Assembly: GCA_963749085.1 (NCBI GenBank)
Contig: CAVVLG010000003.1
Coordinates: 219,380-283,379 of the forward strand
Direction of reading: 5' to 3'
DNA length: 64,000 nucleotides
DNA from: Candidatus Adlerbacteria bacterium
GTDB lineage: Bacteria; Patescibacteriota; Minisyncoccia; Phycocordibacterales; SBAW01
Shown here: one piece after another, positions 20,026 through 37,712 of the stretch
How positions within the stretch are numbered: the first letter of the stretch is position 1
Layout: each line of letters opens with the position of its first letter
Position numbers and translations under genes: made by a program
Notes under the pieces: generated by a model
Told to the model about the DNA's origin: nothing
Seen by the model: only the letters and a program-made list of their open reading frames with translations
Databases searched by the model: none

Positions 20026-20030
20026 GACAC

Positions 20031-22967
20031 ATGGGTAAAAGAATACTATATATAGTAATCGGAACTTTGCTGGTGTTTGGCATTCTCTTTTTACTGTGGT
20101 CATGGTGGTCGCAGCCTAACCACCCTTCGCAAACTACCGGCACCTTTGGCACTGCAAGCAACAGCACTACGACCAGTAGCAGTTCGGGTCCGCCAGGTAA
20201 CGGCACCATATCACTCGGACAAACAGTCGGTGCAGGAAGCTATAACGCACAAGGCGTCTATGTAGGGCAGGGCAACGGCACGTACGACGCGCAGGGGAAT
20301 TATGTCGGCTATGTCAGCACGCAGAGCAGTACCGAGACATCAAACTCAACTGGAACGGTCGGTGCAGGAAGCTATAACGCACAAGGCGTCTATGTAGGGC
20401 AGGGCAACGGCACGTACGACGCGCAGGGGAATTATGTCGGCTATGTCAGCACGCAGAGCAGTACCGAGACATCAAACTCAACTGGAACGGTCGGTGCAGG
20501 AAGCTATAACGCACAAGGCGTCTATGTAGGGCAGGGCAACGGCACGTACGACGCGCAGGGGAATTATGTAGGTTATGTCGGTACTGTGGGAAGCACGACT
20601 GTGACAAGTGTGCCGGGTGCAATTTGGCTAGGCGGTACTTCTTTTAATCCGACGGGTATAAACAGTGTCAGCAGCGGTGCAAACGGCTTCGTGCCAACGA
20701 TTACGACAACAATCAGCAATAACGGCAGCGGGGCTGTGACGCTTATAGAAGCGCTCGCAGGAACTGCGATAGCGGGAACTTTGACATGCGCAGCACCAAG
20801 CTTAGTCGCAGCAATAGCAGCAGGAGGAACCGCAGTCAGTCTCCCGACCGTGGTCGGAGCAGCTACTGGAGTTACAATAACCACTACGGGAGCAGGACCG
20901 GAGTTTCTTACTAGTGGAATAGCGTCATTTGCAGGTGCTATTCCTGTCAACGATTATATTACTCATAACCAACTAGCGGGTTTGGGCTTGATTCAAGGTG
21001 CCTCTTTTGCTCTCCAAGCAAAAAACTCCGCGCAAGACATCGCATTTACCGGCAACAAAGTCGTCGACTGTTTTCTCAATGTCATCGCCAAAGTAGCCCT
21101 CCAGCAAATAACTGTAAGCGTCGTCAACTGGATAAACTCCGGCTTTAGCGGCCAGCCCGCTTTTGTCAACGACTATCAACAGTTCTTCACCAATGTCGCC
21201 GATGCCGCGGCGGGAGCGTTTATTCAAGGGTCTCCACTCTCATTTCTGTGCAGTCCATTTCAATTACAGATAAAAATAGCCATAGCGCAGGCCTATGCCA
21301 CGCGCGCCGCACAGTCCTGTACCCTGACTAAACTCATTAGCGACATTAATGGCTTTATGAACGGCGCCTTTTCAAGCGGCGGCTGGCCTGGGTTTATTTC
21401 CTTTACCACAGTGCCGACCAACAACCCTTATGGCGCGTTTGCCTATGCCCAAGTAGGTCTCGCGACTGCACAATCGCAGGCGCTTACAAATGCGAAGAAT
21501 AATATATCGCCTACGGGCTTTCTTAACCTCCAAAAGCTCTCGGGTTGTAGCGATCCTACTCAAAACGGCATCTCTGGGTCAGCGAGTATAGGTGTAAACC
21601 CGCAGGCAGCGATAGCAGCAGGAAAGGCCGCCTTGCCGCCCGGTTGCACGGCAACAGTGGTTACACCAGGAAGCGCCATTGCAGCTTCTCTGACTTCGTT
21701 AAATAACGCTCAAATCAATCAGCTCGGAATTGGCAATGACATTGATCAGATAATCACTGCACTCACGACCCAGCTCATGACCCACATAGTTCAAAACGGC
21801 CTCTCGTCGCTCTCGCAGACGACGACACAGACGCCCGCCGATATCGCAGCGGAGTCGCAAGCGACCACGCTGCTTGGTGAAATGCAAACCGAGACGACGC
21901 TCGCACAACAGCTCGGCAGTATATATCAAGGGAGCATCGGCGACATAGAAAGCGCCCAGGAAGATCTGAATTCGCTCGCCAGTTGCTGGGGCAGCGTCGC
22001 TTCCTCAAGCCCCTCAGCCGCGCAAGCGTCTCAAAACGCTTCAAACGCCAGCGAGATACTGCAGTCCCTTAACACACAGATTGATATCCTCAACAACAAT
22101 ATTACGGAGGTGAACAACGAAATAGCGGAACTGAACCAATTCCAGGAGGATGTGTCGTCCGCACAATCAGATGCCGGTGTGGCAAATGCCACGGCCAGTT
22201 ACAACGCAGCCGCCGGCAGCTTCCCCGCGCAGACCGACGTTACTACGGCCCAGCAAAACCGCACCACGGAGCAGGCGCAGCTGGCGACGCTTGAACAGTC
22301 AGTGCAGACGAGCCTTACCCAATGCCAGGCCGGCGGCAATGAGTCTTTCAATCCACCATGGCAAGTTTCAATATTAGTAACAGGAGTCACTCTTACCGAC
22401 ATTGGAGGCCAAGCAGGCAACCTTGCAGCCGGTAACACCGACCAGCTCTCGGCAACAGTGGCACCGTCCGATGCAACTGATGCGACAGTTACCTGGTACT
22501 CCGATACCCCCTCTGTTGCCACCGTCGACGCCAATGGTCTCGTGACTGCGGTCGCTCCGGGAACCGCAAACATTACCGCTGCCTCTACCGACGGGAGCAA
22601 TATAACCTCCAATCCTATTATCGTGACAGTTCCTACTTCTGCGGGCGGTGGTCAATCAGTCCAATCGTCGATACCAGTTGCCAGTATCACTATCACTGAC
22701 ACGGGCGGCAAAGCAGGCAGTCTTCCGATCGGCAGTACCGACCAGCTTTCGGCGACGGTAGCGCCATCTGATGCGACCAACCAGACAGTCACTTGGTCCT
22801 CCGACAACACAGTAGTCGCCGCTGTTTACTCAAATGGTCTCGTCACGGGACTTTCCCCAGGAACGGCCAACATCACCGCAGTTTCTACTGACGGCAGTGA
22901 TATAACATCTAACGCCATGACCGTGACGGTCAGCAACCCGCAGCAAGAAGATGCCGCCACGCAATGA
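20031..22967 (+). CDS. Giant surface protein with an N-terminal TM anchor, 3x 44-aa perfect repeats, a coiled-coil segment and two C-terminal Big_2 domains
   Basis: The TM segment is ILYIVIGTLLVFGILFLLW. The repeat unit is TVGAGSYNAQGVYVGQGNGTYDAQGNYVGYVSTQSSTETSNSTG. The Big_2-like segment is TDQLSATVAPSDATxxTVTWxSDxxxVAxVxxNGLVTxxxPGTANITA, twice. Confidence 0.65.
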   Translation: MGKRILYIVIGTLLVFGILFLLWSWWSQPNHPSQTTGTFGTASNSTTTSSSSGPPGNGTISLGQTVGAGSYNAQGVYVGQGNGTYDAQGNYVGYVSTQSSTETSNSTGTVGAGSYNAQGVYVGQGNGTYDAQGNYVGYVSTQSSTETSNSTGTVGAGSYNAQGVYVGQGNGTYDAQGNYVGYVGTVGSTTVTSVPGAIWLGGTSFNPTGINSVSSGANGFVPTITTTISNNGSGAVTLIEALAGTAIAGTLTCAAPSLVAAIAAGGTAVSLPTVVGAATGVTITTTGAGPEFLTSGIASFAGAIPVNDYITHNQLAGLGLIQGASFALQAKNSAQDIAFTGNKVVDCFLNVIAKVALQQITVSVVNWINSGFSGQPAFVNDYQQFFTNVADAAAGAFIQGSPLSFLCSPFQLQIKIAIAQAYATRAAQSCTLTKLISDINGFMNGAFSSGGWPGFISFTTVPTNNPYGAFAYAQVGLATAQSQALTNAKNNISPTGFLNLQKLSGCSDPTQNGISGSASIGVNPQAAIAAGKAALPPGCTATVVTPGSAIAASLTSLNNAQINQLGIGNDIDQIITALTTQLMTHIVQNGLSSLSQTTTQTPADIAAESQATTLLGEMQTETTLAQQLGSIYQGSIGDIESAQEDLNSLASCWGSVASSSPSAAQASQNASNASEILQSLNTQIDILNNNITEVNNEIAELNQFQEDVSSAQSDAGVANATASYNAAAGSFPAQTDVTTAQQNRTTEQAQLATLEQSVQTSLTQCQAGGNESFNPPWQVSILVTGVTLTDIGGQAGNLAAGNTDQLSATVAPSDATDATVTWYSDTPSVATVDANGLVTAVAPGTANITAASTDGSNITSNPIIVTVPTSAGGGQSVQSSIPVASITITDTGGKAGSLPIGSTDQLSATVAPSDATNQTVTWSSDNTVVAAVYSNGLVTGLSPGTANITAVSTDGSDITSNAMTVTVSNPQQEDAATQ
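20222..20585. repeat. 132-bp tandem repeat, about 2.8 copies; copies are identical at nucleotide level
   Basis: Read directly in the sequence. The period between ACGGTCGGTGCAGGAAGCTATAACGC occurrences is 131-132 bp. Confidence 0.85.
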
Positions 22968-22991: not shown

Positions 22992-25622
22992 ATGAAACGG
23001 ATGTTCACCAAATTTACAACGTATAGCAGCATCATTCTTGTGGTAGTGGCAATTATTTTTGGTACGTTTCAACCCTTAGTGGTGCAGGCACAAAATGCTT
23101 CTGTTAATTGCACAGGCTCCAACAGTGCGAACTGCATTCCCAGTGGGGCAGGTACCACGGCCGGAGCTTCTACCGGTTCTAGTGCGTCAAGCGCTCTTAA
23201 CTGCAATGGTACCAACAGTGCAACATGCCTAAATGGTGGAGAGACTACCGTGCCTACAGCGGCGAACACTCCTGCCATAGCGGCAGCTACACCAACCGCA
23301 GGTACCCCAAGCAGCAAAAATCCTGTAGACAACACTAGCAATATCGGTTGCAATCTATCCACTGCAATTACTTCAGGATTTGGGGGAGCGTTCGCACTGT
23401 GTCTCACTAATGTGGTTTATATTTTCACTGTCGGGATTGGCAGTGGCTTTGCATACGTTTCAGCCTACTTTTTTGACTATGCAATAAGTCTTTCGCTTAA
23501 TAGCGCGGCTTATGGACTCGGTTTTGTATCGCAAGGATGGACAACCGCGCGCGACGTTGCCAACATGGCATTTCTCTTCGTCCTTATCTACATCGCGTTC
23601 CTTATCATGTTCGAAGCCGAAACCAGTGGCACCATACCCTTGCTCACCGCCGTGATTGTGATGGCTCTGATAGTTAATTTCAGCTTTTTCTTCACGAGAC
23701 TTGCCATCGATGCGGGAAACATTCTTTCGATTCAGTTCTACAACGCCATCACTGCGCCCTCTATAGCTTCGAGCGCCCAAAACACGGGTGTCGCCGCGGC
23801 ATCTATTGTTAATACTGCAAACAATGCATTGGGTAGCGCCAGTTTGGGCAACAGCAAAGACCTTACTGCGAGCATCATGGGGATGCTTCAGTTGCAAAAT
23901 CTATTTAGCAACCCGTCATTCAATGCCTTCTTTTCAACTAGTCCAGGCTTCATGGTTACCACTATCGCACTCTCCTTCCTGTATATAGCGGCAGCCATCA
24001 TGTTCTGGCTTCTCACCGTTATGTTCGCCACGGCGGGTATGAAGTTCCTCTTTCGCATCGTGGCGCTATGGTTCCTTATTATCGCTTCGCCCTTGGCTTT
24101 CGTCGCATATGCCATACCGGGCCTAAGACAATATTTTAAGCAGTGGCTCTCGCTGCTCATTGAAAATTCGTTCTATCCGGCCGCCTTCATGTTTATTTTT
24201 CTTATTCTCACTAACTTCTCCAATCAGATGTCGGGCAACAACGGGATTATTAGCGGTATCTTCACAGGCCTGACGCCAGGCACAAACACAGCAAGCGGTG
24301 CGGTGGCACAGATAGGATATGCTGCTGCGAATGTTGGCATTCGGATGGGCTTTGTTATTGCTATCCTCTGGGTCGGGCTTGAAGCATCAAAGCGACTTGG
24401 GGTGATGGGTGGCGAAGCGGCTAATAAGTTTGGCAGTTGGGTAGGAACAGGAGTTCTTAAAGGCTACAACGTCCCGTATAAGTACGTGGGTCCGGGAGCA
24501 TTGGCTGGGTTGGCCGATCGGGGTTTGCAAAAGACTAAATTTGGCAATTCGCTCCTCGGTTATGAATTGCGCCGATATGTTACAAAACCTCTCGCCGGTA
24601 CTACCATACCCGGCAGTCATGGAGAATCGTATACGCAACTAATAGAGCGTCAGAGAAAAGAAAGTTCTGAAAAAAAGGCAAATCTGCGTGATATAGAAAC
24701 TAAGAAAATAATCCAGCCGCTTCCTGATGTGGAGAAATCATTGCAGCCGCTTGCAGAGAAAGCAGAACTTAAAAAACTGAATGAGCAGGAAGAACTTAAG
24801 AGATTGCATGCCGCAGAAGTCGCTCATGCAGCTGGCACTGGACCGGCGCTCACCAGAGCTGAGTCGGATCGAAAGACCTATCTAGAGAGCAAGGGTCTGT
24901 CCGATATCAGTGCAAGCCAGGACGCAAGGAGATTAGCTCTTGTGGGTAGAGGGGTGACACCAATAACTGCGACCGAAGAAGATAAGAAAAAAACTCTTGA
25001 TGCAAAAAAATCGAACATAGACACGCGTCTTAAGTCATTGAGCGAGCGCGAAATCGGAGAAATCGGTGCGAAAAACATCAAGCCATATGTTCATGCGTTC
25101 AGCGAAAACCAAATAAAGACAATGAAAAATATCAAGACATTCACCGATGCTCAAAAAGAAGACCTCGAAATGACCTGGCAAGAAAAAGGCGCTGCTGCAC
25201 CGCTTAAGAAAGCTGATGACATCACTGATAAATTGGCCCAAATCGATACGGACCTTAGAGTCGTCGGGAAAGGACTAAAACCTGGAGGTGGAGACCTTAA
25301 GGGTGTCGAGATCATGCAATTAAACACGGCGAACACCACCAAATCTTCGGTAACAAAATCCGGGGATCTCATTACCAAGGACAAACTTGAAGCTGCCCTT
25401 AAATCCATAGGGAACGAGACTGAGAGGGTCAGGGGGGAACGTGACTCGCTAGGGCGCGGTGTGGGTACTGCACCTGCAAGAACGTTCTACGGCCAGCAGC
25501 TGAAGGACTTGCAAGATGCAAAGAAACAGGTCGAGGATCTAAAAGATAAAATGAAAGAGATTTCACCTAAAGTAAGCAGAGCCTCCGAGGGCGCGGGCAC
25601 TTTAACAGTAAGAGATAGGTAG
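22992..25622 (+). CDS. Polytopic membrane protein (about 7 TM) with Cys-pair N-terminal repeats and a charged coiled-coil C-terminus; VirB6/TrbL-like candidate
   Basis: There are multiple long hydrophobic helices, for example VANMAFLFVLIYIAFLIMF and FMVTTIALSFLYIAAAIMFWLLTVMF. Its position is next to PrgI and VirB4 genes. The assignment rests on topology only. Confidence 0.45.
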   Translation: MKRMFTKFTTYSSIILVVVAIIFGTFQPLVVQAQNASVNCTGSNSANCIPSGAGTTAGASTGSSASSALNCNGTNSATCLNGGETTVPTAANTPAIAAATPTAGTPSSKNPVDNTSNIGCNLSTAITSGFGGAFALCLTNVVYIFTVGIGSGFAYVSAYFFDYAISLSLNSAAYGLGFVSQGWTTARDVANMAFLFVLIYIAFLIMFEAETSGTIPLLTAVIVMALIVNFSFFFTRLAIDAGNILSIQFYNAITAPSIASSAQNTGVAAASIVNTANNALGSASLGNSKDLTASIMGMLQLQNLFSNPSFNAFFSTSPGFMVTTIALSFLYIAAAIMFWLLTVMFATAGMKFLFRIVALWFLIIASPLAFVAYAIPGLRQYFKQWLSLLIENSFYPAAFMFIFLILTNFSNQMSGNNGIISGIFTGLTPGTNTASGAVAQIGYAAANVGIRMGFVIAILWVGLEASKRLGVMGGEAANKFGSWVGTGVLKGYNVPYKYVGPGALAGLADRGLQKTKFGNSLLGYELRRYVTKPLAGTTIPGSHGESYTQLIERQRKESSEKKANLRDIETKKIIQPLPDVEKSLQPLAEKAELKKLNEQEELKRLHAAEVAHAAGTGPALTRAESDRKTYLESKGLSDISASQDARRLALVGRGVTPITATEEDKKKTLDAKKSNIDTRLKSLSEREIGEIGAKNIKPYVHAFSENQIKTMKNIKTFTDAQKEDLEMTWQEKGAAAPLKKADDITDKLAQIDTDLRVVGKGLKPGGGDLKGVEIMQLNTANTTKSSVTKSGDLITKDKLEAALKSIGNETERVRGERDSLGRGVGTAPARTFYGQQLKDLQDAKKQVEDLKDKMKEISPKVSRASEGAGTLTVRDR

Positions 25623-26487: not shown

Positions 26488-26937
26488 ATGGCGCGGTATC
26501 AAGTTCCTCAATTTATCGAGGTTGAAGATAAAATATTCGGACCGTTGACATTCAAGCAATTCGTCTATATTGCTGGCGGCGGAGGGCTGTGTCTTGTTTT
26601 TTTTACGCTTCTACCGCTTTACATCGCCATTATCTTCATGATCCCTGTGGCGGCCTTTGCACTGGCACTCGCGTTCTATAAGGTTAACGGTCGGCCGTTC
26701 ATTGTAGTGGTGGAGCATGCTGTTGGGTATTTTTTCGGCCATAAGCTCTATTTGTGGAAACAAAGAAGCCAACAGGCTACAAACAGCAAAAAACCCTTAC
26801 CCAATATCTCTGTAGCAAACCAGCTGGTACCAAAACTTTCGCAAAGCAAGCTCAAGGATCTCTCTTGGTCGCTCAATATAAAGGATCGCGCCAAGATGGG
26901 CCTGGTTGACTCGGAGCGCACTGGATTTGAAATTTAG
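26488..26937 (+). CDS. PrgI-family (VirB3-like) small membrane protein
   Basis: The N-terminus MARYQVPQFIEVEDKIFGPLTFKQFVYIAGGGG followed by two TM helices is typical of PrgI/VirB3-like proteins that precede VirB4 in Gram-positive T4SSs. Confidence 0.65.
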   Translation: MARYQVPQFIEVEDKIFGPLTFKQFVYIAGGGGLCLVFFTLLPLYIAIIFMIPVAAFALALAFYKVNGRPFIVVVEHAVGYFFGHKLYLWKQRSQQATNSKKPLPNISVANQLVPKLSQSKLKDLSWSLNIKDRAKMGLVDSERTGFEI

Positions 26938-26941
26938 AAGT

Positions 26942-27607
26942 ATGCCAAACACAAAAGTAAAAGCGCAGGCGACCCAGGAATTCGTGCCCATCAAAGAGGT
27001 GCGCGAGGGTATTGTGATACTCAAAGACGGAAGCCTGCGCGCACTCCTTATGGCTTCTTCCATAAATCTCGCGCTCAAAGGAGCCGACGAGCAGCAGGCG
27101 ATTATCGGACAGTTCCAGAATTTTCTCAATTCGTTGGAATTTACTACACAATTCTTCATTGAATCGCGAGATCTCGATATCCGTCCCTACATCGCCCTTC
27201 TTGAGGAGCGTTTGGCCGCCGAGCTCGACGATCTGATGAAAATTCAGATACGCGAATACATTTCATTCATCAAGGATTTTACCGAACGCGCGAACATTAT
27301 GTCGAAAAATTTCTTTATCGTCGTCCCGTACGATCCGGCCTTCATCGCACGCGGCGGAGGTATACGAGGAACAGTTACTTCATTTTTGCCTACAAAAGGC
27401 GGCGGGAATTCCGTACTTACCGATGAGCAGTTTGAGGAATATCGCACCCAGCTGGAGCAGCGCATTTCAGTTATTGAACAGGGACTGGTGCGCACCGGCG
27501 TACGCGTTGTCAACCTCGGCACGGAGGAGGTTATAGAATTATTCTACAAACTCTTCAATCCGGGCGAGCTGGAGAAGCCCCTGCAAGTCACGCAAATCGC
27601 CAAATAA
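26942..27607 (+). CDS. Stand-alone protein resembling the N-terminal (TraC/TrbE/CagE-type) domain of VirB4
   Basis: The segment FVPIKEVREGIVILKDGSLRALLMASSINLALKGADEQQAII resembles the N-terminus of the downstream VirB4 (LPEQIYKEGVLELQDVIAPSALKITPREINLGDKIARTFFV). It ends 2 nt before the VirB4 start, in a different frame. Confidence 0.5.
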   Translation: MPNTKVKAQATQEFVPIKEVREGIVILKDGSLRALLMASSINLALKGADEQQAIIGQFQNFLNSLEFTTQFFIESRDLDIRPYIALLEERLAAELDDLMKIQIREYISFIKDFTERANIMSKNFFIVVPYDPAFIARGGGIRGTVTSFLPTKGGGNSVLTDEQFEEYRTQLEQRISVIEQGLVRTGVRVVNLGTEEVIELFYKLFNPGELEKPLQVTQIAK

Positions 27608-27609
27608 CT

Positions 27610-29454
27610 ATGGCAATCCTTGATTTTTTAAAAACAAAAAAGTCCTCGCCGCTTACGCCAGTCGCACCTATTTTGCCGGAGCAAATATATAAAGAGGGGG
27701 TACTAGAACTCCAAGACGTCATCGCGCCCTCGGCTCTCAAAATAACACCACGTGAGATAAACCTCGGCGATAAAATCGCGCGCACGTTCTTCGTCATGTC
27801 TTATCCGCGTATCCTCACCGACTCGTGGTTCTCTCCCGTCATTAATCTCGACCGCGTGCTTGATGTGTCCATCTTTATCCACCCGCTAGACTCCGCCGAG
27901 GTCCTCAAAAAATTCCAAAAAAAGGTCGCCGAGGTACAGAGCCAGATTATGGTACGGGAAGAAAAAGGCCTCGTGCGCGACCCGATGCTTGATACCGCCT
28001 ATCAGGATCTCGAGCAGCTACGCGACAACCTCCAACAGGCGCAAGAGAAACTGTTCGACGTCGGCGTCTATATCACCATTTACGGCGCTTCGACGGAGGA
28101 GCTCGACAAGGCCGAGTCGGAAATAAAATCGATGCTTGAGTCGCGATTGATTTACGTCAAACCAGCGCTTTTCCAGCAGGAGCAGGGTTTCAAAAGTGTG
28201 CTCCCCATAGGGCTCGACGAACTTGCTGTCAACTCGAAGTTGAATTCCTCTCCGCTCTCTTCCATTTTCCCGTTCGTGTCCTTCGATCTGACGTCAGATA
28301 AGGGCATACTCTACGGCGTCAATCGTCATAACGCCTCACTCGTTCTCTTTGATCGTTTCAGCTTGGAAAACTACAACTCAGTTATATTCGCAAAGTCGGG
28401 TTCTGGCAAATCCTACGCCACAAAACTCGAGATCTTACGCACGCTTATGTTCGACACGGAAGTCATTGTTATCGATCCGGAGCGCGAATACGAGTTTCTG
28501 GCGCAAACCGTCGGCGGCCGTTATTTCAACATCAGCCTCAACTCTGAACACCATATCAATCCCTTCGATTTAGCCCCTCCTCGTGAGGACGAAAGTGCCT
28601 CGGACGTGCTTCGAAGTAACATTGTTGCGCTGGTTGGAATGTTCCGGATCATGCTCGGGGGACTCACCCCTGAAGAAGACGCAATAATTGATCGCGCCAT
28701 CACTGAAACCTATGCGCTCAAAGATATCACCGTCGATAGTAATTTTGCTGATATAGAACCTCCGCTGCTGTCGGACTTCGAACTAGTCTTGGCTGGCATG
28801 CAGGGCTCGGAGTCCTTGGTGCAGCGGCTCAGCAAATACACCAAGGGCACCTGGTCGGGGTTCATCAACGAGCCGACCAATGTCGATATCAACAAAAAAT
28901 TCGTGGTGTTCTCGGTGCGCGACATGGAGGACGATCTCAAACCGGTCGCGATGTACCTCATCACCCATTATATCTGGAACGCCGTTCGTAAAACGCTGAA
29001 AAAACGCCTGCTGGTCATCGATGAGGCGTGGTGGATGATGAAATCGGATGACACGGCGTCGTTTCTCTACAGCATGGCTAAGCGCGGCCGCAAATACTTC
29101 TTGGGGCTCGCGACCATCACTCAGGATGTTGATGACTTCTTGAAGTCGCCCTACGGGCTCCCGATGATAACCAACTCTTCGATTCAAATTCTGCTGAAAC
29201 AATCGCCGACCACTATTGATAATCTACAAAAAACTTTCAATCTTTCGGACGAGGAGAAATATCTTCTACTGGAGTCAGATGTGGGAGAGGGTATTTTCTT
29301 TGCTGGGCTCAAACACGTAGCTATTAAAGTCATTGCCTCCTATACCGAGGACCAGATCATCACCTCCGACCCTTCCCAAGTGCTGGCGTTGCGCAAGCAG
29401 CGCGCTGAAGCAAGCGAGACACCAGCTGCGCCTGCGGGAAGCGCGATACAATAA
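27610..29454 (+). CDS. VirB4/TraC/TrbE-family type IV secretion ATPase (DUF87/AAA-like)
   Basis: Walker A is FAKSGSGKSYAT. Walker B is LLVIDEAWWMM. Length is 614 aa. It follows the PrgI-like gene. Confidence 0.8.
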   Translation: MAILDFLKTKKSSPLTPVAPILPEQIYKEGVLELQDVIAPSALKITPREINLGDKIARTFFVMSYPRILTDSWFSPVINLDRVLDVSIFIHPLDSAEVLKKFQKKVAEVQSQIMVREEKGLVRDPMLDTAYQDLEQLRDNLQQAQEKLFDVGVYITIYGASTEELDKAESEIKSMLESRLIYVKPALFQQEQGFKSVLPIGLDELAVNSKLNSSPLSSIFPFVSFDLTSDKGILYGVNRHNASLVLFDRFSLENYNSVIFAKSGSGKSYATKLEILRTLMFDTEVIVIDPEREYEFLAQTVGGRYFNISLNSEHHINPFDLAPPREDESASDVLRSNIVALVGMFRIMLGGLTPEEDAIIDRAITETYALKDITVDSNFADIEPPLLSDFELVLAGMQGSESLVQRLSKYTKGTWSGFINEPTNVDINKKFVVFSVRDMEDDLKPVAMYLITHYIWNAVRKTLKKRLLVIDEAWWMMKSDDTASFLYSMAKRGRKYFLGLATITQDVDDFLKSPYGLPMITNSSIQILLKQSPTTIDNLQKTFNLSDEEKYLLLESDVGEGIFFAGLKHVAIKVIASYTEDQIITSDPSQVLALRKQRAEASETPAAPAGSAIQ

Positions 29455-29458
29455 CTAT

Positions 29459-30019
29459 ATGAAGTTGCACTACATTTTTTTTCTTCTGGTAGCTATTTTC
29501 ATAACTGGACTTGCCGACGGCATAACGTGGGCTCTGGCACCTATACCCGGTATTGGATTTGTACTTGGCATTGCGATAGCTTTCTGCATCAACATAACCA
29601 TGGGCGTAGGGTTTCTTATGCCTCTGCTAGCTCTCAGTGATATGTACCACCCGCGCATAAGCCCTTTCGGCATTATCGCGGGACTCATACCTGGTGTTAA
29701 CGTGTTGCCTTTCTGGGTTGGGCTCGTCATCGCGGGCATTATCTATAAAACAAACGCGGAGGGCAAATCACTCGGTGGCGTTACCGGCACGGCATTCAAA
29801 CTTCAATCCATATATCAATCAGGAGGAAATCCTATTTCTAAAATGCGTGAAGCCGGTTCAGCGACACGGAACTCTCGCCGAGATCTCGATCGACCCGAGG
29901 TTCCCCGACCGGCTGATGCCGGCGAAGAGCGGCAAAGTATACGCACACTGCAAAATCTAAAATCTCCCCGTATGAATGAAGATATACGATCACCACAAGC
30001 TCATGCACAAACTGCATAA
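29459..30019 (+). CDS. Small 4-TM membrane protein, hypothetical
   Basis: The hydrophobic helices are HYIFFLLVAIFITGL, GIGFVLGIAIAFCINITMGVGFLMPLLAL, FGIIAGLIPGV and FWVGLVIAGIIY. Confidence 0.45.
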   Translation: MKLHYIFFLLVAIFITGLADGITWALAPIPGIGFVLGIAIAFCINITMGVGFLMPLLALSDMYHPRISPFGIIAGLIPGVNVLPFWVGLVIAGIIYKTNAEGKSLGGVTGTAFKLQSIYQSGGNPISKMREAGSATRNSRRDLDRPEVPRPADAGEERQSIRTLQNLKSPRMNEDIRSPQAHAQTA

Positions 30020-31043
30020 AGAAATACTCGTTTGTGTGCTCATCGCTTTTTTTGCTTTCGCGGGCGTAACTCATGCGCAGTCGACCGACGGAGTGCCTCC
30101 TCCGGTGCAATATAACGTGGCGCCCGAAACGCCAGGACCAGATACACCGGTTACCATTACGGTTCAGGGGGTTGGCACTTTTTTGGGCAATTCAAATGTT
30201 ATCTGGTCGCAAGACGGTGCAGTCGTTTCCTCAGGTGTCGGAGACAGCAGTTATTCCTTCACTACGGGGGCGCTCGGGCAAGTAACGACCATACATGTGG
30301 AAATAGACTCCGCCACAGAAGGCACCATAACGCAGGACTTCACTATTAATCCTTCGTTGGTTGACTTAGTGTGGGAGGCCGATACCAGTGCTCCTCCTTT
30401 TTATAGAGGCAAACCGCTTTATAGCGCGGGCTCAGGACTTAAAGTAGTTGCCTTTCCAATAGTGATCTCAAATGGCACTCGGGTTGCTGCATCAAGCCTC
30501 TCGTACCAATGGACGCGAGATAGTGTACCCCAGGCGGCAGCTTCCGGACTTGGAGAAAACACGTTCTCTTTTACGGGCGACCAATTGCAAACGGGGGAAG
30601 ATGTTGAGGTTGACATTTATCTTGGCAATACGCTGGTAGGCCAGGGTGAAGTCGTGATTCCGAGTTCATCTCCTCAAGTGGTGCTCTATGATCAAGACCC
30701 TCTGCGCGGTACGTTATACGATGAAGCGTTGCCGAGTGCGATATCGCTCGACACTAAAGAGTTAACCGTGCAGGCGGTGCCGTACTATTTTTCAAACACG
30801 AGCATAAGCGACGGCGCACTCTCTTATAGCTGGACGCTTAACGGCAACACCATAACCGGCCCTGAATCCGCGCAGGGGATACTGACCCTACTGCAAACGG
30901 GAAGTGGAACGGGCGCGGCGAATCTCGCCGTATCGGTGCAGAACAATGATCCTGATAAATTGGTACAAGCGGCAAGTGCGGCGCTCCAAATTGTATTCGG
31001 GCAATCAACAGGTTCTAGCCCTTCATCATTCTTTGGACCATGA
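29976..31043 (+). CDS. Hypothetical secreted protein (signal peptide)
   Basis: The signal-like N-terminus is ILVCVLIAFFAFAGVTHAQ. No recognisable domain. Confidence 0.45.
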   Translation: MKIYDHHKLMHKLHKEILVCVLIAFFAFAGVTHAQSTDGVPPPVQYNVAPETPGPDTPVTITVQGVGTFLGNSNVIWSQDGAVVSSGVGDSSYSFTTGALGQVTTIHVEIDSATEGTITQDFTINPSLVDLVWEADTSAPPFYRGKPLYSAGSGLKVVAFPIVISNGTRVAASSLSYQWTRDSVPQAAASGLGENTFSFTGDQLQTGEDVEVDIYLGNTLVGQGEVVIPSSSPQVVLYDQDPLRGTLYDEALPSAISLDTKELTVQAVPYYFSNTSISDGALSYSWTLNGNTITGPESAQGILTLLQTGSGTGAANLAVSVQNNDPDKLVQAASAALQIVFGQSTGSSPSSFFGP

Positions 31044-31978
31044 AAAAACTGCTTTTAAATGCGGGGTTGTTCTCTCTTTTGTTTTCCATAGGTATGCTCG
31101 TTCCCGTCGTGCATGCACAGGTCGGCGGTATACCTGAATATACAGGTAGCCCTCCCTCGACATCGGCGCCAAATTATAATTGTCCTTCCGGTCAGACCTA
31201 TTCATCAACTGGTAGTAATGGGTCAGGTGGGTGTGTTGCCTTACCTACGACAGCAAACCCAGCTGGCACACCAACTAACGGTTCTAATCTCACTTATACC
31301 CCCCTTGAACCGATACCAGGTGCAACCACAAATGCAAACGGAACCGCGCTTAGTTTTCCGGCGCTGATAAATAGTATGTTTACCGTTCTCTTTACTGTAG
31401 GAGCACTGTTTGCGGTGCTTATGCTCACAATAAGTGGCATACGGTATATGCTCTCGGATGTCGTCATTAATAAAGAGAGAGCAATAAAACGTATTACAGC
31501 CTGTATCTACGGCCTACTCCTCTTAGCTGGCACGTGGCTCATACTGAACACCATAAACCCACAGCTACTTAATTTTACACTCATTCCGTGTCCACAGGGA
31601 AGTACCGGATGTACGATCACGGGTGCACCACCGACAAATACAACGCCTCCACCAAATCCTTATTCTTCTATTTCATTTCAACAGGCGGTACAAAACGAGC
31701 AGACGGTTCAAAACGCAATTACAGATAATACCGACGCGCAAAATGCACAGACATACGACCAATCTAACTGTGCTTCTATCGCCCAGCAACAAACTGCGCT
31801 CGTCCAAACGGCAAGTGCTCCCCCAGCGGGGGGTGGTCAGGGCTGTGTCATTAACGTAAGTGGGATGTTCGGGAGTGTAGGCAACACCCAATGCCTCTCT
31901 TATAGAGTACAGTATCAATCATTTTGCGACCAACTCGCAGAATGCCAGTCGGATGGGAACGGTACTTATAATTGTTGA
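31040..31978 (+). CDS. Candidate T4SS pilin-like protein (VirB2/TrbC-like topology) with a signal peptide, a Pro/Thr-rich spacer, two adjacent TM helices and a Cys-rich C-terminus
   Basis: The signal peptide is MKKLLLNAGLFSLLFSIGMLVPVVHAQ. The paired helices are FTVLFTVGALFAVLMLTISGIRYML and ITACIYGLLLLAGTWLILNTI. The assignment rests on topology and genomic context only. Confidence 0.4.
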   Translation: MKKLLLNAGLFSLLFSIGMLVPVVHAQVGGIPEYTGSPPSTSAPNYNCPSGQTYSSTGSNGSGGCVALPTTANPAGTPTNGSNLTYTPLEPIPGATTNANGTALSFPALINSMFTVLFTVGALFAVLMLTISGIRYMLSDVVINKERAIKRITACIYGLLLLAGTWLILNTINPQLLNFTLIPCPQGSTGCTITGAPPTNTTPPPNPYSSISFQQAVQNEQTVQNAITDNTDAQNAQTYDQSNCASIAQQQTALVQTASAPPAGGGQGCVINVSGMFGSVGNTQCLSYRVQYQSFCDQLAECQSDGNGTYNC

Positions 31979-31987
31979 TTTAATAAA

Positions 31988-33226
31988 ATGAAAAACACTT
32001 TTACACTACTATTTAGTGCCGTAATAATTTTACTTTTGATATTCCTTGCAATTTGGTTTTTCTTTTTCCGACCATCTGCGCCGGGGCAAACTACACCTAC
32101 CTCTTCTTTCGGCACAGCAGCAAATAATTCAACGACGGTTACGAGCAACACCTCTTCAAACTCAACCCAGTCGACCAATGTGCCGTTAACGCAATCTGCC
32201 GCACAAAAGATATTTGAAATTGCGACAGGTCCAGTGGTCGGCGCAACGCTGATACAGACGCTCGACCCTACGACCACCCTCGCGCGATACATAGATGCAG
32301 ATGATGGTCATGTGTATGACTTGCCGCTCGATGTTCCCGGTGCCATACCGCAGGTCGTCTCCGATACGACCATCCCTGGCGGTGTGGACGCTATCTGGGT
32401 AGACGACGGCAATGCGGTAGTCATGCAGTACCTCGATACTAGCGATGCGGTAAAAACGCTATATATGAACTTCCAAGTTACAACCTCGAGTTCTTCTTCA
32501 CTTGAGGCGACCAAAATACTATTTTTGCCAAACAATATCATCGGCATCGCTGCCTCTCCTGACGGCAAGGACGTCGTATATCTGCTCCAAACCGCAAGCG
32601 GCTCTGACGGCTATACCGCAAAGGCAGACGGCACCGGTGCCAAAAAACTATTTTCTCTCCCACTCTCGCAGATGATTATTTCTTGGCCTTCGAAGGGTAC
32701 CCTCTTGGCGTATACCAAATCGGCTGCAGGCGTACCCGGTATTGTGTTTGCAATCGACGTTAAAAGTGGAAACGTGACGCCGCTTGTGTATGCCGACGGT
32801 ATCACTGCGACGGCTGACCCGACATTTGCGAATGTCATTTATCAGGTGGTATTAAGTGATGGGTCTGCGCCGATTACCTACATTCACAACGTTAGCACTG
32901 GACTTAATCAGGCTGCCGATTTCAATCCTGCCCCTGAAAGATGTATCTGGAGTGAAATTGTCACCTCATTTATGTACTGCGCTATTTCGACCGTAGATAC
33001 GCAATCAAATTTCCTCGACTTGTGGCATCAAGGCGAAACTGGCGGAGGGGATGCTATCTTTTCTTTTGACGTCTCTAAGAATACTGACAATCTCGTTGCA
33101 GCTCTTTCGAACAGTATGGGGTCAAGCGATATTTCAGAAATGGCACTCTCGCCCGATGAGCACTATCTCGACTTCGTGACCAAAGGCGACCGAACGCTGT
33201 GGGGTGTGCGCCTTACACAACCGTAG
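31988..33226 (+). CDS. N-terminally anchored extracytoplasmic protein, probably a beta-propeller (TolB/WD40-like) fold
   Basis: The TM segment is FTLLFSAVIILLLIFLAIWFFFF. Repeated SPDGK/SPDE blade-like motifs are present. Confidence 0.4.
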   Translation: MKNTFTLLFSAVIILLLIFLAIWFFFFRPSAPGQTTPTSSFGTAANNSTTVTSNTSSNSTQSTNVPLTQSAAQKIFEIATGPVVGATLIQTLDPTTTLARYIDADDGHVYDLPLDVPGAIPQVVSDTTIPGGVDAIWVDDGNAVVMQYLDTSDAVKTLYMNFQVTTSSSSSLEATKILFLPNNIIGIAASPDGKDVVYLLQTASGSDGYTAKADGTGAKKLFSLPLSQMIISWPSKGTLLAYTKSAAGVPGIVFAIDVKSGNVTPLVYADGITATADPTFANVIYQVVLSDGSAPITYIHNVSTGLNQAADFNPAPERCIWSEIVTSFMYCAISTVDTQSNFLDLWHQGETGGGDAIFSFDVSKNTDNLVAALSNSMGSSDISEMALSPDEHYLDFVTKGDRTLWGVRLTQP

Positions 33227-33689
33227 TCCCTTGCGTCGAACGATACTTCAGTACGATGTGGCGAAATTTTCCTTCGCCTTCTGACACTGTCTTTATCTCC
33301 GGATCTTCAGCAAACAACTCATGCACTACTAACCGCTCGTAGGAAGAGAGCGGCTCCATCTCGACATCGTGCTTAAAAAGCCGTGCACGCTGCGCAAGCA
33401 TGCGAGCGGCCGAGCGTACGTGTTCAAGCTGATCTTCGTGGTAATTGTTAACGTCAATAAGGAAGTTCGCTACTTCCTCGCCGTGGTGGGTTTCTACGAG
33501 CCTGCGCGCGAGTGTATTGAGCGCGCGTAAATGCTCCCCATGAGGACCGATAAGGAGTTTGGAATCCTGCGAAGTAATCCGTACGACCGTGCGGTGACCA
33601 TTGTCTATCTCTACGGCCGCGTTCTCAACTCCCAACTGGGAGAGAAGGTCGGTGATATGTTGTTTGAGAAGCTCCGGGTTCATGCGCAC
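33213..33689 (-). CDS. jag: Jag/KhpB-like RNA-binding protein (KH + R3H domains)
   Basis: The segment VVRITSQDSKLLIGPHGEHLRALNTLARRLV is KH-like and FRHIVLKYR is R3H-like. It is downstream of yidC in the canonical operon. Confidence 0.7.
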   Translation of the reverse strand: MRMNPELLKQHITDLLSQLGVENAAVEIDNGHRTVVRITSQDSKLLIGPHGEHLRALNTLARRLVETHHGEEVANFLIDVNNYHEDQLEHVRSAARMLAQRARLFKHDVEMEPLSSYERLVVHELFAEDPEIKTVSEGEGKFRHIVLKYRSTQGTTVV

Positions 33690-33724
33690 ACAATACCCTA
33701 AGAGACTCCTCTATCGCAACTTGA

Positions 33725-34447
33725 CTACTTTTTTTTCCTGAGTTCGCGGCGTATGAGCCACTCCTGGCCCAAAGAAATAACGTTGCCGGTGGCAAAATAA
33801 AGGCCGGCCGCCGAAGGGAGGGTGAAGGAAATGACCGCAAAGAGGCCGGGCATGAAATACAGCATCATTTTTTGCTGCATCGCTTGCGCCTGCGCTTTTT
33901 CAGGCGAGAGTGACTTTGATTTCGGGGTGCGCATAAGCGAGAGATGGATAACCGCGTATTGGAGCAAGCCGACTACCAAGGCAAGAATGATATTGTGCGC
34001 GTTGGAAAGATTTAAAAATCCCAAGAACTGCAAATTAACGTTTACGGGATTCGAGACGAACGAATAGAGGAGCGTAGTGGCAACATGGGGAAGTCCTCCG
34101 TCTTCGCGAAAGAATGCGTAGTACAAGGCGATGAATATAGGTATCTGCACCAGAATGGCAACAAAACCGGCGAGTGGGCGGATATTGCGCTCCTTGAAAA
34201 GCGCCATGGTGTGTTTTGCCTTTTCGTCGGGGTTGTCTTTGTATTTTTTATTTATTTCATCGAGCTCACCTTGCGCCGCCGCCATGCCCATTTGGGTTCG
34301 TATGGACGCGCTGAAGGCCGGATAAAACAGAACGCGCATCACCACCGTCATGGCGATGATAGCGAGCCCCACGTCGCCGTGCGGCATGACGTCGATGAGG
34401 AAGATAAACGCGTTGTAGAGGGGTTGTATTAAGTAAGTTTGGAACAT
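33725..34447 (-). CDS. yidC: Membrane protein insertase YidC/Oxa1 (short Gram-positive type)
   Basis: The motifs LAIIAMTVVMRVLFYP and IRPLAGFVAILVQIPIFIALYY are present. Its position is after rnpA. Confidence 0.85.
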   Translation of the reverse strand: MFQTYLIQPLYNAFIFLIDVMPHGDVGLAIIAMTVVMRVLFYPAFSASIRTQMGMAAAQGELDEINKKYKDNPDEKAKHTMALFKERNIRPLAGFVAILVQIPIFIALYYAFFREDGGLPHVATTLLYSFVSNPVNVNLQFLGFLNLSNAHNIILALVVGLLQYAVIHLSLMRTPKSKSLSPEKAQAQAMQQKMMLYFMPGLFAVISFTLPSAAGLYFATGNVISLGQEWLIRRELRKKK

Positions 34448-34728
34448 AAGGTTTTAACTTCGCGTCGTATAGCTTCAAGGGATGCCGCTTTGCGGACAAA
34501 AAACACAACATGCGCGCGGGGAAGTTTCGTGAGCTCCCGGTAGACGCTGCGGCGCAATGCATTTCGTAAGATCGCCTTCTTAGCTGTCTTCTTTGATACC
34601 ACGACGGCTACTTTTCCAGTCGACGTCGCTATCCATTTTACCGCTAAAGGGCCGCTTGAGAGCGAACGGCCTTCTTTGAGAACACGGCGAACCTCAACGG
34701 CCCTTAAACGACGCGAAGCGGGAAGCAT
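34429..34728 (-). CDS. rnpA: Ribonuclease P protein component
   Basis: The motifs MLPASRRL...VVVSKKTAKKAILRNALRR are present. It lies 4 nt downstream of rpmH. Confidence 0.85.
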   Translation of the reverse strand: MLPASRRLRAVEVRRVLKEGRSLSSGPLAVKWIATSTGKVAVVVSKKTAKKAILRNALRRSVYRELTKLPRAHVVFFVRKAASLEAIRREVKTLCSKLT

Positions 34729-34732
34729 GGCG

Positions 34733-34867
34733 CTACACCGAGAGCCTCGCACGCCCCTTGCGGGCGCGCCGCTTCAATGTCGCGCGGCCTCCGGCGGTTT
34801 TTGTGCGCTTCAAATACCCGTGCGAGCGAGCGCGTTTGCGCTTTTTGGGTTGATAAGTTTGCGACAT
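34733..34867 (-). CDS. rpmH: 50S ribosomal protein L34 (44 aa; below the ORF-track length cutoff)
   Basis: The minus strand translates to [44 protein letters not shown]. Confidence 0.85.
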
Positions 34868-34910
34868 GACTAGAACCATATCACACCATATAGCCTATAT
34901 ACAACTTCCC

Positions 34911-35171
34911 CTACCCGTATAGTTCGGAGTGAGTTCCAATTTTTATAAAAAGCACGATGTCCTGTCTTATTGGTTCATAGATAGCCCGAAAATTCCCGGT
35001 TATATTGATGCTTCGATAACCTGCATACGCTCCATGCAGTGCATGGTTATCAAGAAGCGGATGAAACGGATTTTTGAGAAATAAATCTCGGCGTTCTTGG
35101 AATTGTTCTTTAATCTTCTTTGGCAACTTGTCAAATCGCTTTACAAAACGATCGTCAAGAATTATTTTCAT
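34911..35171 (-). CDS. Type II toxin, RelE/YafQ-family mRNA interferase
   Basis: Length is 86 aa. The motifs DNHALHGAYAGYRSINITGNFRAIY are present. It overlaps the upstream antitoxin ORF by 4 nt. Confidence 0.65.
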   Translation of the reverse strand: MKIILDDRFVKRFDKLPKKIKEQFQERRDLFLKNPFHPLLDNHALHGAYAGYRSINITGNFRAIYEPIRQDIVLFIKIGTHSELYG

Positions 35172-35449
35172 GCACGCCGATTAAGCCACGCGTCCATCTC
35201 TTTACCGGAAGAAAATGCTGGAGAAACGTTTTTTCCTTTCCGGAAATCTGCGCTCGCTTTGCGGAGTTCCCGTCCGGTCTTGGCATTAGGTATTTCTCTG
35301 CGCACGATGCCGATACCATACTCTCCTTCCGCAAACTTTTCCGTCGCCATTTTGAGAAAGGAAGCAAAAGGGACGCCTTCCCGCTTGGCTCGCTTCATCG
35401 CTTTAGCCTTAATCTTCGGATCGATGTTAAATACAATTTGGGTGGTCAT
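35168..35449 (-). CDS. Type II antitoxin, RelB/DinJ-like (RHH)
   Basis: Length is 93 aa. The N-terminus IVFNIDPKIKAKAMKRAKREGVPFASFLK is RHH-like. It sits immediately upstream of the RelE-like toxin. Confidence 0.6.
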   Translation of the reverse strand: MTTQIVFNIDPKIKAKAMKRAKREGVPFASFLKMATEKFAEGEYGIGIVRREIPNAKTGRELRKASADFRKGKNVSPAFSSGKEMDAWLNRRA

Positions 35450-35539
35450 ATATATAGCTTATACATAGCTCAGATATATGTCAACTTCCACCGCAGCCTG
35501 GGCAAGCCCCCCTGTACTGTGTGCAAGGTGTCCCGCTGT

Positions 35540-35779
35540 CTATAAATTTTTATAGGTACCCTCGTTGCGTAGCCCTATGTGATCAATGATAAGCACCTGG
35601 TGCTCGTAATGAAAGACTATTCTGAGACGACCCTTCCGAACGCGGAATTTTTCATGGCCAGAAAGCCTGACAACATTGAGACTGTGAAAGTTTCTCGTCA
35701 GCAATCTCTCAACCATTTCTTCCAACTGGGCGCGCTGTTTCTTATTTAACTTTCGAAGAAGTTTTTCGTGCTCGTTCAT
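35540..35779 (-). CDS. Type II toxin, RelE/ParE family
   Basis: Length is 79 aa. The segment FRVRKGRLRIVFHYEHQVLIIDHIGLR has the typical RelE/ParE C-terminal pattern. It overlaps the upstream antitoxin. Confidence 0.65.
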   Translation of the reverse strand: MNEHEKLLRKLNKKQRAQLEEMVERLLTRNFHSLNVVRLSGHEKFRVRKGRLRIVFHYEHQVLIIDHIGLRNEGTYKNL

Positions 35780-36032
35780 GCGTTTTTATTCTGCGGAGTA
35801 TGCGCAGCACCTCGCCACCCGCAATGCCCTTGCCTTTATTATCGCGGTCAGCATCAAAAATAGTGCCCCACTCTACTTCGCTTTCCCCAGCGTCCACCGG
35901 AGCCATGCGAAATACCGGTTTCGAGCGCCGCAATACCGTAAATGAAGAACCGCGCTCGACGTCCTTTATGTATTTGTCGAGATTAACGCGTAACTCCTTA
36001 AGTCCAACGAGATTATGTTTAGCCATATCCAT
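35742..36032 (-). CDS. Type II antitoxin, Phd/YefM family
   Basis: The segment LVGLKELRVNLDKYIKDVERGSSFTVLRRSKPVFRMAPVD has a Phd/YefM fold signature. The ORF extends to 36062. Confidence 0.6.
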   Translation of the reverse strand: MDMAKHNLVGLKELRVNLDKYIKDVERGSSFTVLRRSKPVFRMAPVDAGESEVEWGTIFDADRDNKGKGIAGGEVLRILRRIKTHERARKTSSKVK

Positions 36033-36169
36033 AAGTTTATCCTCAGATGAACTTTGAGTCAAATCGTCCTGTCAAATGTGGTTTATACACACGTTCTCCA
36101 CACCTTATGCACAAAACTGCAAATTTTGACTCGGGGAGAAGAGACGGGTATCCTTGGTTACGACTCGCC

Positions 36170-37513
36170 ATGACAACTACGAAGGAACTCTGGGAAAATG
36201 CACTGGTTGAGCTCGAGCTCACCATATCAAAACCGAATTTCAACACGTGGTTTAAAGATACACACATCGTGAGAGTGGAGGACGGCGCGGTCCACCTCGG
36301 CGTCCCCTCGCAATTCGCCCGCGACTGGCTCTCCACCAAGTTCCACAAGGATATTCTTCGCTCCCTGCGCGGGCTCTCCGAGAACGTGCGGGTGGTTGAG
36401 TACGTTATTTCCCGCAGCGCCAAGAAAACGAGCGAGGAAGTGGCGCTCTCAGTCCCGGCCGCCGCTCAAGAACTTCCCCTTGAGGCGGTACATCCAAAGA
36501 CCAATCTTAATCCGCGCTTCACGCTTGGCTCTTTCGTTGTGGGACCCTTCAATGAACTCGCCCATGCGGCAGCGCAGGCAGTCATACGCAAGCCCGGCAT
36601 CGCTTACAACCCGCTCTTGGTGTACGGGCCCACCGGTTTGGGCAAGACGCACCTCATACAGGCGGTGGGAAATCATTTCCGCATGAGCGCGCCGGAGCGA
36701 AAGGTCTACTACACCACCTCGGAGAAGTTCTCCATGGACTATGTGTCATCGCTTCAGAGCAACAAAACACAAAGCTTCAAGGAAAAATACCGGCAGTACG
36801 ACCTTCTCATCATGGACGACATTCAATTTCTGGCCGGCCGAGACAAAATAAAGGAGGAATTCTTCCATTTGTTCAACTTTTTGCACGACAACAACAAACA
36901 ATTGGTCTTCTCCTCCGACCAGCACCCCAACGTCATCCAAAACCTCGAGGATAGGCTCAAATCGCGCTTTGCAGCGGGCATGGTGGTCTCGGTGACACCG
37001 CCCGATCATCAATCGCGTTTGGCCATTGTGCGTTCAAAAGCGGCCGCTCACGGCGTCATGATGCCAGATGAGGTGCTCGAATACCTGGCTGCCACGGTTG
37101 AGGGCAACGTACGGGAGCTTGAAGGCGCTCTAAACACGCTTCTCATACAGTTTGAGATGCGCGGCAATCCCTTGACGTTGAGCGACGCCAAAACGCTCCT
37201 GCGCGGCGCGGGGGCTGCCACAAAAAAGGCGGTGTCGGTGCAGGAAGTGGTCAAGACTATTGCCAGTTTTTACGGAGTGGAGGAGACGAGTATTTATGAG
37301 AAGACGCGGCGCAAGGAAGTGGTGCGCCCGCGCCAGGTGATTATGTATTTATTGCGCGAGGATTTTCGCATTTCCTTCCCCACCATAGGGGAGAAACTCG
37401 GTGGACGCGATCACACCACCGTCATTCATTCCTGCGAGAAAATACGCAATGACATTCTTGGGGATAGTGTGCTTTCTCAGGAGGTACATCAGATTCGTCT
37501 GATGTTGAAATGA
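36170..37513 (+). CDS. dnaA: Chromosomal replication initiator protein DnaA
   Basis: Walker A is LLVYGPTGLGKTHL. The AAA+ sensor motifs and the C-terminal DNA-binding helix GEKLGGRDHTTVIHSCEKI are present. The ORF opens at 36047; the start is taken at MTTTKELW. Confidence 0.9.
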   Translation: MTTTKELWENALVELELTISKPNFNTWFKDTHIVRVEDGAVHLGVPSQFARDWLSTKFHKDILRSLRGLSENVRVVEYVISRSAKKTSEEVALSVPAAAQELPLEAVHPKTNLNPRFTLGSFVVGPFNELAHAAAQAVIRKPGIAYNPLLVYGPTGLGKTHLIQAVGNHFRMSAPERKVYYTTSEKFSMDYVSSLQSNKTQSFKEKYRQYDLLIMDDIQFLAGRDKIKEEFFHLFNFLHDNNKQLVFSSDQHPNVIQNLEDRLKSRFAAGMVVSVTPPDHQSRLAIVRSKAAAHGVMMPDEVLEYLAATVEGNVRELEGALNTLLIQFEMRGNPLTLSDAKTLLRGAGAATKKAVSVQEVVKTIASFYGVEETSIYEKTRRKEVVRPRQVIMYLLREDFRISFPTIGEKLGGRDHTTVIHSCEKIRNDILGDSVLSQEVHQIRLMLK

Positions 37514-37712
37514 TGGGGAGAAGTGGTAGAAATACGCGGGGATAATTGGGGATAAGAAAAGAGAAACATTCTCTGATGAAGACTTTATGAAACTTACCAC
37601 CACCTTATCAAAAAACGGAGTGTATAAAAAAGCCTTTAATAATAATGGTTTTATCGACTTCTCCCCCTATCCACAGAGCTAATAGTAATAGTAGTTTTTA
37701 TATAGATACTTT

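Follow-up and report, generated by a model that had tools for sequence, protein, structure and literature searches.

What does a short open reading frame (ORF) of 221 amino acids (aa) do directly before the gene for a VirB4-type ATPase, and does it repeat a part of that ATPase or supply one? The question is raised by a 64,000-nucleotide (nt) stretch of DNA from Candidatus (Ca.) Adlerbacteria (hereafter the window, whose positions are used throughout), in which two frames, designated here ORF A and ORF B, lie tightly adjacent in an operon-like type IV secretion system (T4SS) cluster together with genes for a PrgI family protein, a VirB6-like protein and a VirB2-like pilin protein. A preliminary description of the window had regarded ORF B as a full-length VirB4 and ORF A as a second, duplicated copy of its N-terminal domain, with a remnant of gene fusion or fission as the fallback reading. 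The evidence assembled here favors a different answer, in which ORF A and ORF B very probably form one VirB4 ATPase made as two polypeptides (a split VirB4). The genes concerned, and the junction between them, are laid out as follows.

26488 to 26937, plus strand: PrgI family protein (VirB3-like membrane protein), 149 aa; Pfam PF12666 PrgI, expectation value (E) 4.4e-11, above the curated cut-off
26942 to 27607, plus strand: ORF A, 221 aa, ATG start, TAA stop at 27605-27607; TrsD-like or 'TraC-like' (PF26593) soluble protein
27605 to 27612, plus strand: junction of ORF A and ORF B, the sequence there being TAA, the 2-nt spacer CT and ATG
27610 to 29454, plus strand: ORF B, 614 aa, ATG start; N-terminally short VirB4 ATPase

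The stop of the PrgI gene and the start of ORF A are 4 nt apart. ORF A (26942-27607) ends 2 nt before the VirB4 start and in a different reading frame from ORF B, as the preliminary description had read from the sequence, and the frame of ORF B is closed upstream by a TGA at 27475-27477, 45 codons before. Judged from its homologues, the ATG at 26942 is the right start of ORF A: it is backed by a protein of the same 221 aa and 100% identity (P0001), and the same start is seen for homologues of 219-227 aa among the best 120 listed from more than 7590 clusters.

Coverage of VirB4 by ORF A and ORF B

ORF B matches the NCBIfam model conju_CD1110 (NF045971) with 389.2 bits and E 3.6e-116, above the curated cut-off of 325, and covers only positions 185-733 of the 752 in that model, so that the N-terminal 184 positions stay uncovered. 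Its match to VirB4_plasma (the Mbov_0397 family, NF045975) extends over positions 287-893 of 894, its alignment to TIGR00929 begins at position 269 of 792, and in Pfam TraC_F_IV, a 375-position model of the TraC N-terminal region, it reaches positions 299-374. In the alignment to the solved VirB4, in which the Walker A motif GSGKS (residues ~263-267) and a VIDEAW motif are seen, residue 255 of ORF B, just before Walker A, aligns with residue 445 of TrwK, an offset of ~190, and TrwK residues 445-735 match ORF B residues 255-552. The C-terminal domain structure of VirB4 from T. pseudethanolicus (4ag5) matches ORF B residues 230-586 with E 9e-42. On these alignments ORF B is not the full-length VirB4 that it had been called, its coverage of CD1110 beginning only at 185 of 752: some 185-190 N-terminal positions are missing, and what is encoded is assigned to the latter half of the N-terminal domain of VirB4 (residues ~30-230) followed by the P-loop ATPase domain (~230-590).

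The models that ORF B enters late are matched in their early positions by ORF A, which aligns with positions 2-114 of 752 in CD1110 (E 1e-3) and 99-233 of 894 in VirB4_plasma (E 8e-9). TraC_F_IV is matched at positions 18-173 by an ORF A orthologue (P0004, 87% identical) and at 41-179 by an A-like protein from Clostridium. When A and B are joined, the VirB4_plasma score rises from 263 to 301 bits, and the best stretch of the concatenate crosses the junction, with residues 168-805 corresponding to model positions 238-893. ORF A also matches the TrsD/TraD family NF041427 at positions 11-142 of 201, with 33 bits and E 4.9e-8, which makes it only remotely related and not a TrsD protein in the formal sense; its gene has the genomic context of TrsD/TraD, belonging to a T4SS cluster and coming immediately before that of a VirB4-type ATPase. 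All of the best 120 homologue clusters listed for it, including that of P0001, carry a precomputed PF26593 assignment; Pfam scans of ORF A and P0004 returned no PF26593, the model being apparently missing from the scanned library. On its collinearity with the family models and with the fused homologue described below, ORF A is assigned to the free-standing first half, or first ~190 residues, of a canonical VirB4 N-terminal domain. Together A and B cover the same positions in the same order as full-length VirB4 proteins (CD1110 NF045971, Mbov_0397 NF045975, TrwK/TraC), from which they differ in being two polypeptides, with the break at ~180-185 of the CD1110 model and at about residue 190 of TrwK.

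An exhaustive search with HMMER, using ORF A as query, returned 2117 representative proteins at E<=1e-3, of which the best 150 were inspected for fusions, and a single fused full-length VirB4 was found among these, the 797-aa protein P0214; the other longer matches that were looked at have nothing but low-complexity extensions. In P0214, residues 1-214 correspond to ORF A (38% identity, E 3e-47) and residues 226-794 with ORF B residues 30-597 (56% identity), and a second match to ORF A, sought in the B-like part, was not found there. In a single stretch, P0214 residues 17-750 match positions 18-725 of 792 in TIGR00929 (VirB4_CagE), and its match to TraC_F_IV (positions 133-371) runs across the A/B junction. 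The fused gene lies on a Patescibacteria contig in the same setting as the window, in the order PrgI, fused VirB4, jag, yidC, rnpA and dnaA. With a query spanning the junction, only ~5 of 120 listed clusters bridge A and B, which indicates that fused forms are real but rare.

Several features of the two families were recorded alongside. Many stand-alone A homologues (P0162, P0192, P0266, P0211) have long N- or C-terminal extensions of low complexity, enriched in Gln, Pro, Ala and Thr, and reach totals of 300-440 aa; ORF A of the window has no such extension. A motif near the N-terminus, P-[IV]-L-P-x-E-I-Y, is strongly conserved among orthologues of B, before 'DVIAP' (window 27664-27690, B residues 19-27); it is absent from the fused P0214, where a short Gly-rich linker stands in its place, and may contribute to an interface that only the split form has. 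A profile of the B N-terminal region (window 27610-28329) gave a weak match, E 0.006, to residues 131-233 of the Nanoarchaeum A-type ATPase subunit B (NEQ263, 5bn3_B), which is probably due to chance.

Conservation of the split

A locus scan with a 12-sequence alignment of A as query, limited to one genome per species, returned 80 loci, all of them from Patescibacteria (Paceibacteria, Adlerbacteria, Kaiserbacteria and others). An A orthologue with 54-85% identity is present in 80/80 of these loci, and wherever downstream sequence is available (79/79 loci) it is followed directly by a B orthologue of 71-93% identity, with a stop codon between the two. Among the 67 loci with both boundaries defined, the spacer measures -4 to +25 nt in 56, and the gap length modulo 3 equals 0, 1 and 2 in 10, 34 and 23 loci, respectively, so that all relative frames occur. 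In four species, a gene of ~120-135 aa stands between the A and B orthologues (L017:4315-4756, L059:6613-7062, L067:6643-7138 and L076:2975-3419). The inserted gene belongs to Pfam PF05635 (23S rRNA intervening sequence protein, a bAvd-like four-helix bundle), as confirmed in three of the four, and the inserted ORF at L067 appears disrupted. A gene in this position implies that B is translated independently, and the conservation of the split, with its own stop and start codons and in all three frames, rules out a frameshift, a sequencing error and programmed recoding. The argument that the TGA at 27475 speaks against a simple frameshift therefore holds; the comparison of fused and split arrangements at orthologous loci, proposed as a check, comes out strongly on the side of the split, with the fused P0214 as a rarity, and the fallback reading of a fusion or fission remnant turns out to be essentially correct.

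Similar arrangements are found outside the Patescibacteria. The C. botulinum plasmid pCBG and a Geobacillus plasmid encode PrgI, an A-like protein of 257 or 318 aa and a short VirB4 of 620 or 636 aa in that order, and a Halobacillus plasmid encodes an annotated TrsD of 345 aa followed by a DUF87 ATPase of 622 aa. Embleya has PrgI and the A-like domain joined in a single 349-aa protein, followed by a small gene of the XF1762 family and then by a 643-aa ATPase, and the SCO6880 profile (NF042935) joins PrgI (12-80), an A-like segment (~132-297) and a segment resembling the B N-terminus (344-477). The SCO6880 family and the Embleya 'PrgI family protein' thus contain the same modules in the same order as the window, and differ from it in having other fusion boundaries, in being actinobacterial proteins and, for the SCO6880 profile, in having no ATPase domain. 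Cross-homology to the A-like domain was considered for the match of ORF B to SCO6880 positions 363-477 and rejected, since the Geobacillus A-like protein corresponds to 132-297 and its B-like partner to 344-477, in collinear fashion. In the actinobacterial 'PrgI family' protein at L003:3596-4645 and in SCO6880-family proteins, a VirB3-like membrane anchor appears to be joined to some or all of the VirB4 N-terminal domain with no ATPase attached, which would be one more way of dividing up these modules. A fixed order of PrgI, A and B in which any neighboring pair can be fused is the classic pattern of physically interacting parts. On this comparative evidence, the split is ancient and under selection in the Patescibacteria, and common to pGO1-type and other Firmicutes T4SS loci.

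Duplicate, broken gene or separate accessory

The proposal of a domain encoded twice went along with a perceived parallel between the N-termini of the two ORFs, and the pairwise alignment suggested as a check does not bear it out, with a best E of 3 in BLASTP of ORF A against ORF B and an E of 5.6 for the segment containing 'REGIVILKD' and 'KEGVLELQD'. Smith-Waterman alignments evaluated against 2000 shuffles gave p=0.13 for residues 1-80 of A and B and p=0.38 for A against B residues 1-240; the segments picked by hand in the preliminary description gave p=0.046, which is not significant after selection. Comparison of profiles, for an 83-sequence family of A and a 51-sequence family of the first 240 residues of B, led to the same outcome: hhalign, run in local, global and low-MAC modes, returned a probability of 0.2% (E 0.37), or 0.1% when secondary structure derived from AlphaFold2 (AF2) models was added, and no signal came from a profile score test anchored on secondary-structure elements, in which the diagonal ranked 50/120 and 82/120. 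Profile searches of PDB sequences, made with the A profile and the B N-terminal profile, did not reach TrwK with either. By all these measures the parallel is at chance level. Since A comes first and B second in the family models and in P0214, A and the N-terminal region of B are distinct segments that follow one another in the VirB4 N-terminal domain. The claim that this domain is encoded twice by duplication is contradicted by this mapping, and the two segments have no detectable mutual similarity.

Comparison with VirB4 N-domain structures, the other check suggested for this locus, gave a clear result for one of the two proteins. The AF2 model of ORF A, built on the 83-sequence alignment, has a predicted local distance difference test (pLDDT) value of 88 and a predicted template modeling (pTM) score of 0.78, and the top 14 Foldseek matches to it in the PDB, which are its only significant ones, are all TrwK/VirB4 chains of the R388 T4SS, with probability 1.0, ~220 aligned columns and a query-normalized TM-score of 0.5-0.55. 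The top matches of the model of B residues 1-240, a poor model as detailed below, are also TrwK chains only. In the AF2 models of A and of the B N-terminus, ten elements follow in the same order (strand, strand, helix, strand, helix, helix, strand, helix, strand, helix). One doubtful extension of this observation is that every VirB4 N-terminal domain goes back to an ancient tandem repeat of a single alpha/beta module, one copy to each half, and that TrsD and VirB4 are split at the repeat boundary. The module might then be, to go by the order of elements, a ferredoxin-like unit (beta-alpha-beta / beta-alpha-beta) into which a helical hairpin is inserted, and the parallel noted earlier may be a faint echo of a repeat older than the divergence of T4SS classes. 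The one line of support for such a repeat is the shared element order, taken from a pair of models of which one is of low confidence, and there is no residue-level signal; if true, the repeat would characterize VirB4 proteins in general and would not amount to a duplication at this locus.

These results bear directly on the alternatives to a VirB4 made in two pieces. It is very unlikely that ORF A is a duplicate of an N-terminal domain that ORF B has kept, acting as an accessory subunit: the common order of secondary-structure elements would fit a duplicate, and the TrwK/VirB4 matches of both models make an ancient internal repeat in VirB4 N-terminal domains possible, but sequence, profile and element-anchored tests are all null, A and B fall on separate, successive stretches of all full-length VirB4 models and of P0214, B is without the ~185-190 N-terminal positions that it would have to retain, and a fold common to both halves would concern all VirB4 proteins and not this locus. 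Even less credence, close to none, can be given to a recent frameshift, sequencing indel or pseudogenization that cut a single VirB4 gene here. Such an event would leave just what is seen at the junction, two abutting ORFs in different frames with a 2-nt gap, and a 797-aa fused relative does exist; yet the same split recurs, with its own stop and start and in all frames, in 79/79 related species loci with downstream sequence, stand-alone A homologues form more than 7590 clusters (those listed being of ~220 aa), the frame of B is closed 45 codons upstream (27475), other genes have been inserted between A and B in some species, and fused forms amount to one full-length VirB4 in the best 150 of 2117 proteins and ~5/120 listed clusters that bridge the junction. 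The comparative data refute this alternative.

A further alternative, unlikely on present evidence and still the least improbable of the three, is that ORF A derives from an N-terminal piece of VirB4 and now works as an independent T4SS accessory protein, such as an assembly chaperone or a regulator, and not as a stoichiometric part of the ATPase. It would agree with the description of pGO1 TrsD as a protein without assigned function (PMC12102498), with the lower conservation of A than of B in the same species (~54-85% against 71-93% identity) and with the low-complexity extensions that bring many A homologues to 300-440 aa. Against it, A supplies exactly the segment missing from B, fused forms occur in the same genomic context, and the adjacency is very tight in most species.

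Some observations weigh against the split VirB4 itself. The score of ORF A in the TrsD family, 33 bits, lies far below the curated NF041427 cut-off of 200 bits. The Foldseek result gives no TrwK residue ranges for ORF A, and the assignment to a half-domain leans on sequence collinearity. The AF2 model of B residues 1-240, derived from a low-diversity alignment, is poor (pLDDT 57). Lastly, no obvious Shine-Dalgarno sequence is seen by eye before the ATG of ORF B, and the mode of coupling is thus uncertain.

If the split VirB4 is nonetheless accepted as the most probable answer, the short gaps of 4 nt between PrgI and A and 2 nt between A and B make co-translation in matched amounts the most likely mode of synthesis. 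In R388, VirB3 wraps around the VirB4 N-terminal domain (residues 15-400), through which VirB4 dimerizes and the ATPase is held at the membrane (PMC9259494). By analogy, A would most likely dock, without a covalent link, onto both PrgI and the N-terminal region of B, and this docking would rebuild the membrane-proximal module that, in R388, binds VirB3 and mediates VirB4 dimerization.

Known systems and the surrounding cluster

The association of a TrsD-like gene with virB4 has been described before. In the study by Quinonero-Coronel et al. (Microb Genom 2025, PMC12102498), TrsD is reported to have remote homology to the N-terminal portion of VirB4 and to be the most abundant T4SS component of the Patescibacteria, with 2272 homologues, 1664 of them beside virB4; a TrsD homologue is essential in Ca. 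Southlakia epibionticum ML1, and the T4SS cluster often lies near dnaA. The homology of TrsD to the VirB4 N-terminus is credited there to Guglielmini et al. (2014), in the main text of which the word TrsD is absent. The window resembles these loci in phylum, its closest homologues coming from Paceibacterota and the Patescibacteria group, and in layout, with PrgI/VirB3, the TrsD-like gene and VirB4 adjacent in the same order on the chromosome near dnaA (PMC12102498). The arrangement is already known and the window is an ordinary example of it. What is added here, relative to the passages of that study drawn on, is that the Patescibacteria VirB4 itself is without exactly the segment supplied by the TrsD-like protein, that the two proteins stand in a collinear relation, that rare fused relatives exist, and that A matches TrwK in structure.

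The locus is also comparable to the pGO1-, pSK41- and pIP501-type order of TrsD/TraD followed by TrsE/TraE (VirB4), in which the gene for a small soluble protein directly precedes that for a short VirB4-type ATPase. It differs from these Gram-positive TrsD systems in the score of ORF A (33 bits against the cut-off of 200), and the Patescibacteria system is chromosomal, most such clusters being reported to lack a relaxase (PMC12102498). A 2026 paper on pELF plasmids that names both TraD and VirB4 was set aside as irrelevant, because its TraD is of the VirD4 type.

The consequences are mostly practical. Patescibacteria VirB4 genes of ~610 aa would be incomplete alone, the upstream 'hypothetical' protein of ~220 aa being the missing N-terminal piece, and in work that models, expresses or deletes the T4SS ATPase of these bacteria, PrgI, A and B belong together in co-expression and co-folding. 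Annotation pipelines that name A 'hypothetical' or 'KAP-like P-loop ATPase' are affected as well. That Saccharimonadia cannot do without the T4SS for epibiotic growth was known before and, with this essentiality and the TrsD-VirB4 association both established, nothing fundamental is changed.

Around PrgI, A and B, the T4SS cluster contains two further genes with family matches, and it adjoins a replication-origin gene set (window 33213-38810).

22992 to 25622, plus strand: VirB6/TrbL-like polytopic membrane protein, 876 aa; weak Pfam TrbL match, E 1.4e-4, below the curated cut-off
31040 to 31978, plus strand: T4SS pilin (VirB2-like) domain protein, 312 aa; Pfam PF18895 T4SS_pilin, E 1.4e-8, above the curated cut-off
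33213 to 33689, minus strand: jag/R3H
33725 to 34447, minus strand: yidC
34429 to 34752, minus strand: 107-aa ORF in the rnpA position, without a Pfam match
36047 to 37513, plus strand: dnaA
37713 to 38810, plus strand: dnaN

In the protein encoded at 31040-31978, the T4SS_pilin domain occupies residues 107-172, between long flanks rich in Thr, Pro and Asn, and the ORFs beside its gene (29462-30019, 29976-31043 and 31988-33226) had no match in the family scan. At the head of the cluster, window positions 19977-22967 on the plus strand encode a 996-aa protein with two C-terminal Big_2 Ig-like domains and a tandem repeat of ~45 residues in three near-identical copies (GTVGAGSYNAQGVYVGQGNGTYDAQGNYVGYV...), which is probably a T4SS-associated protein, either secreted or at the surface.

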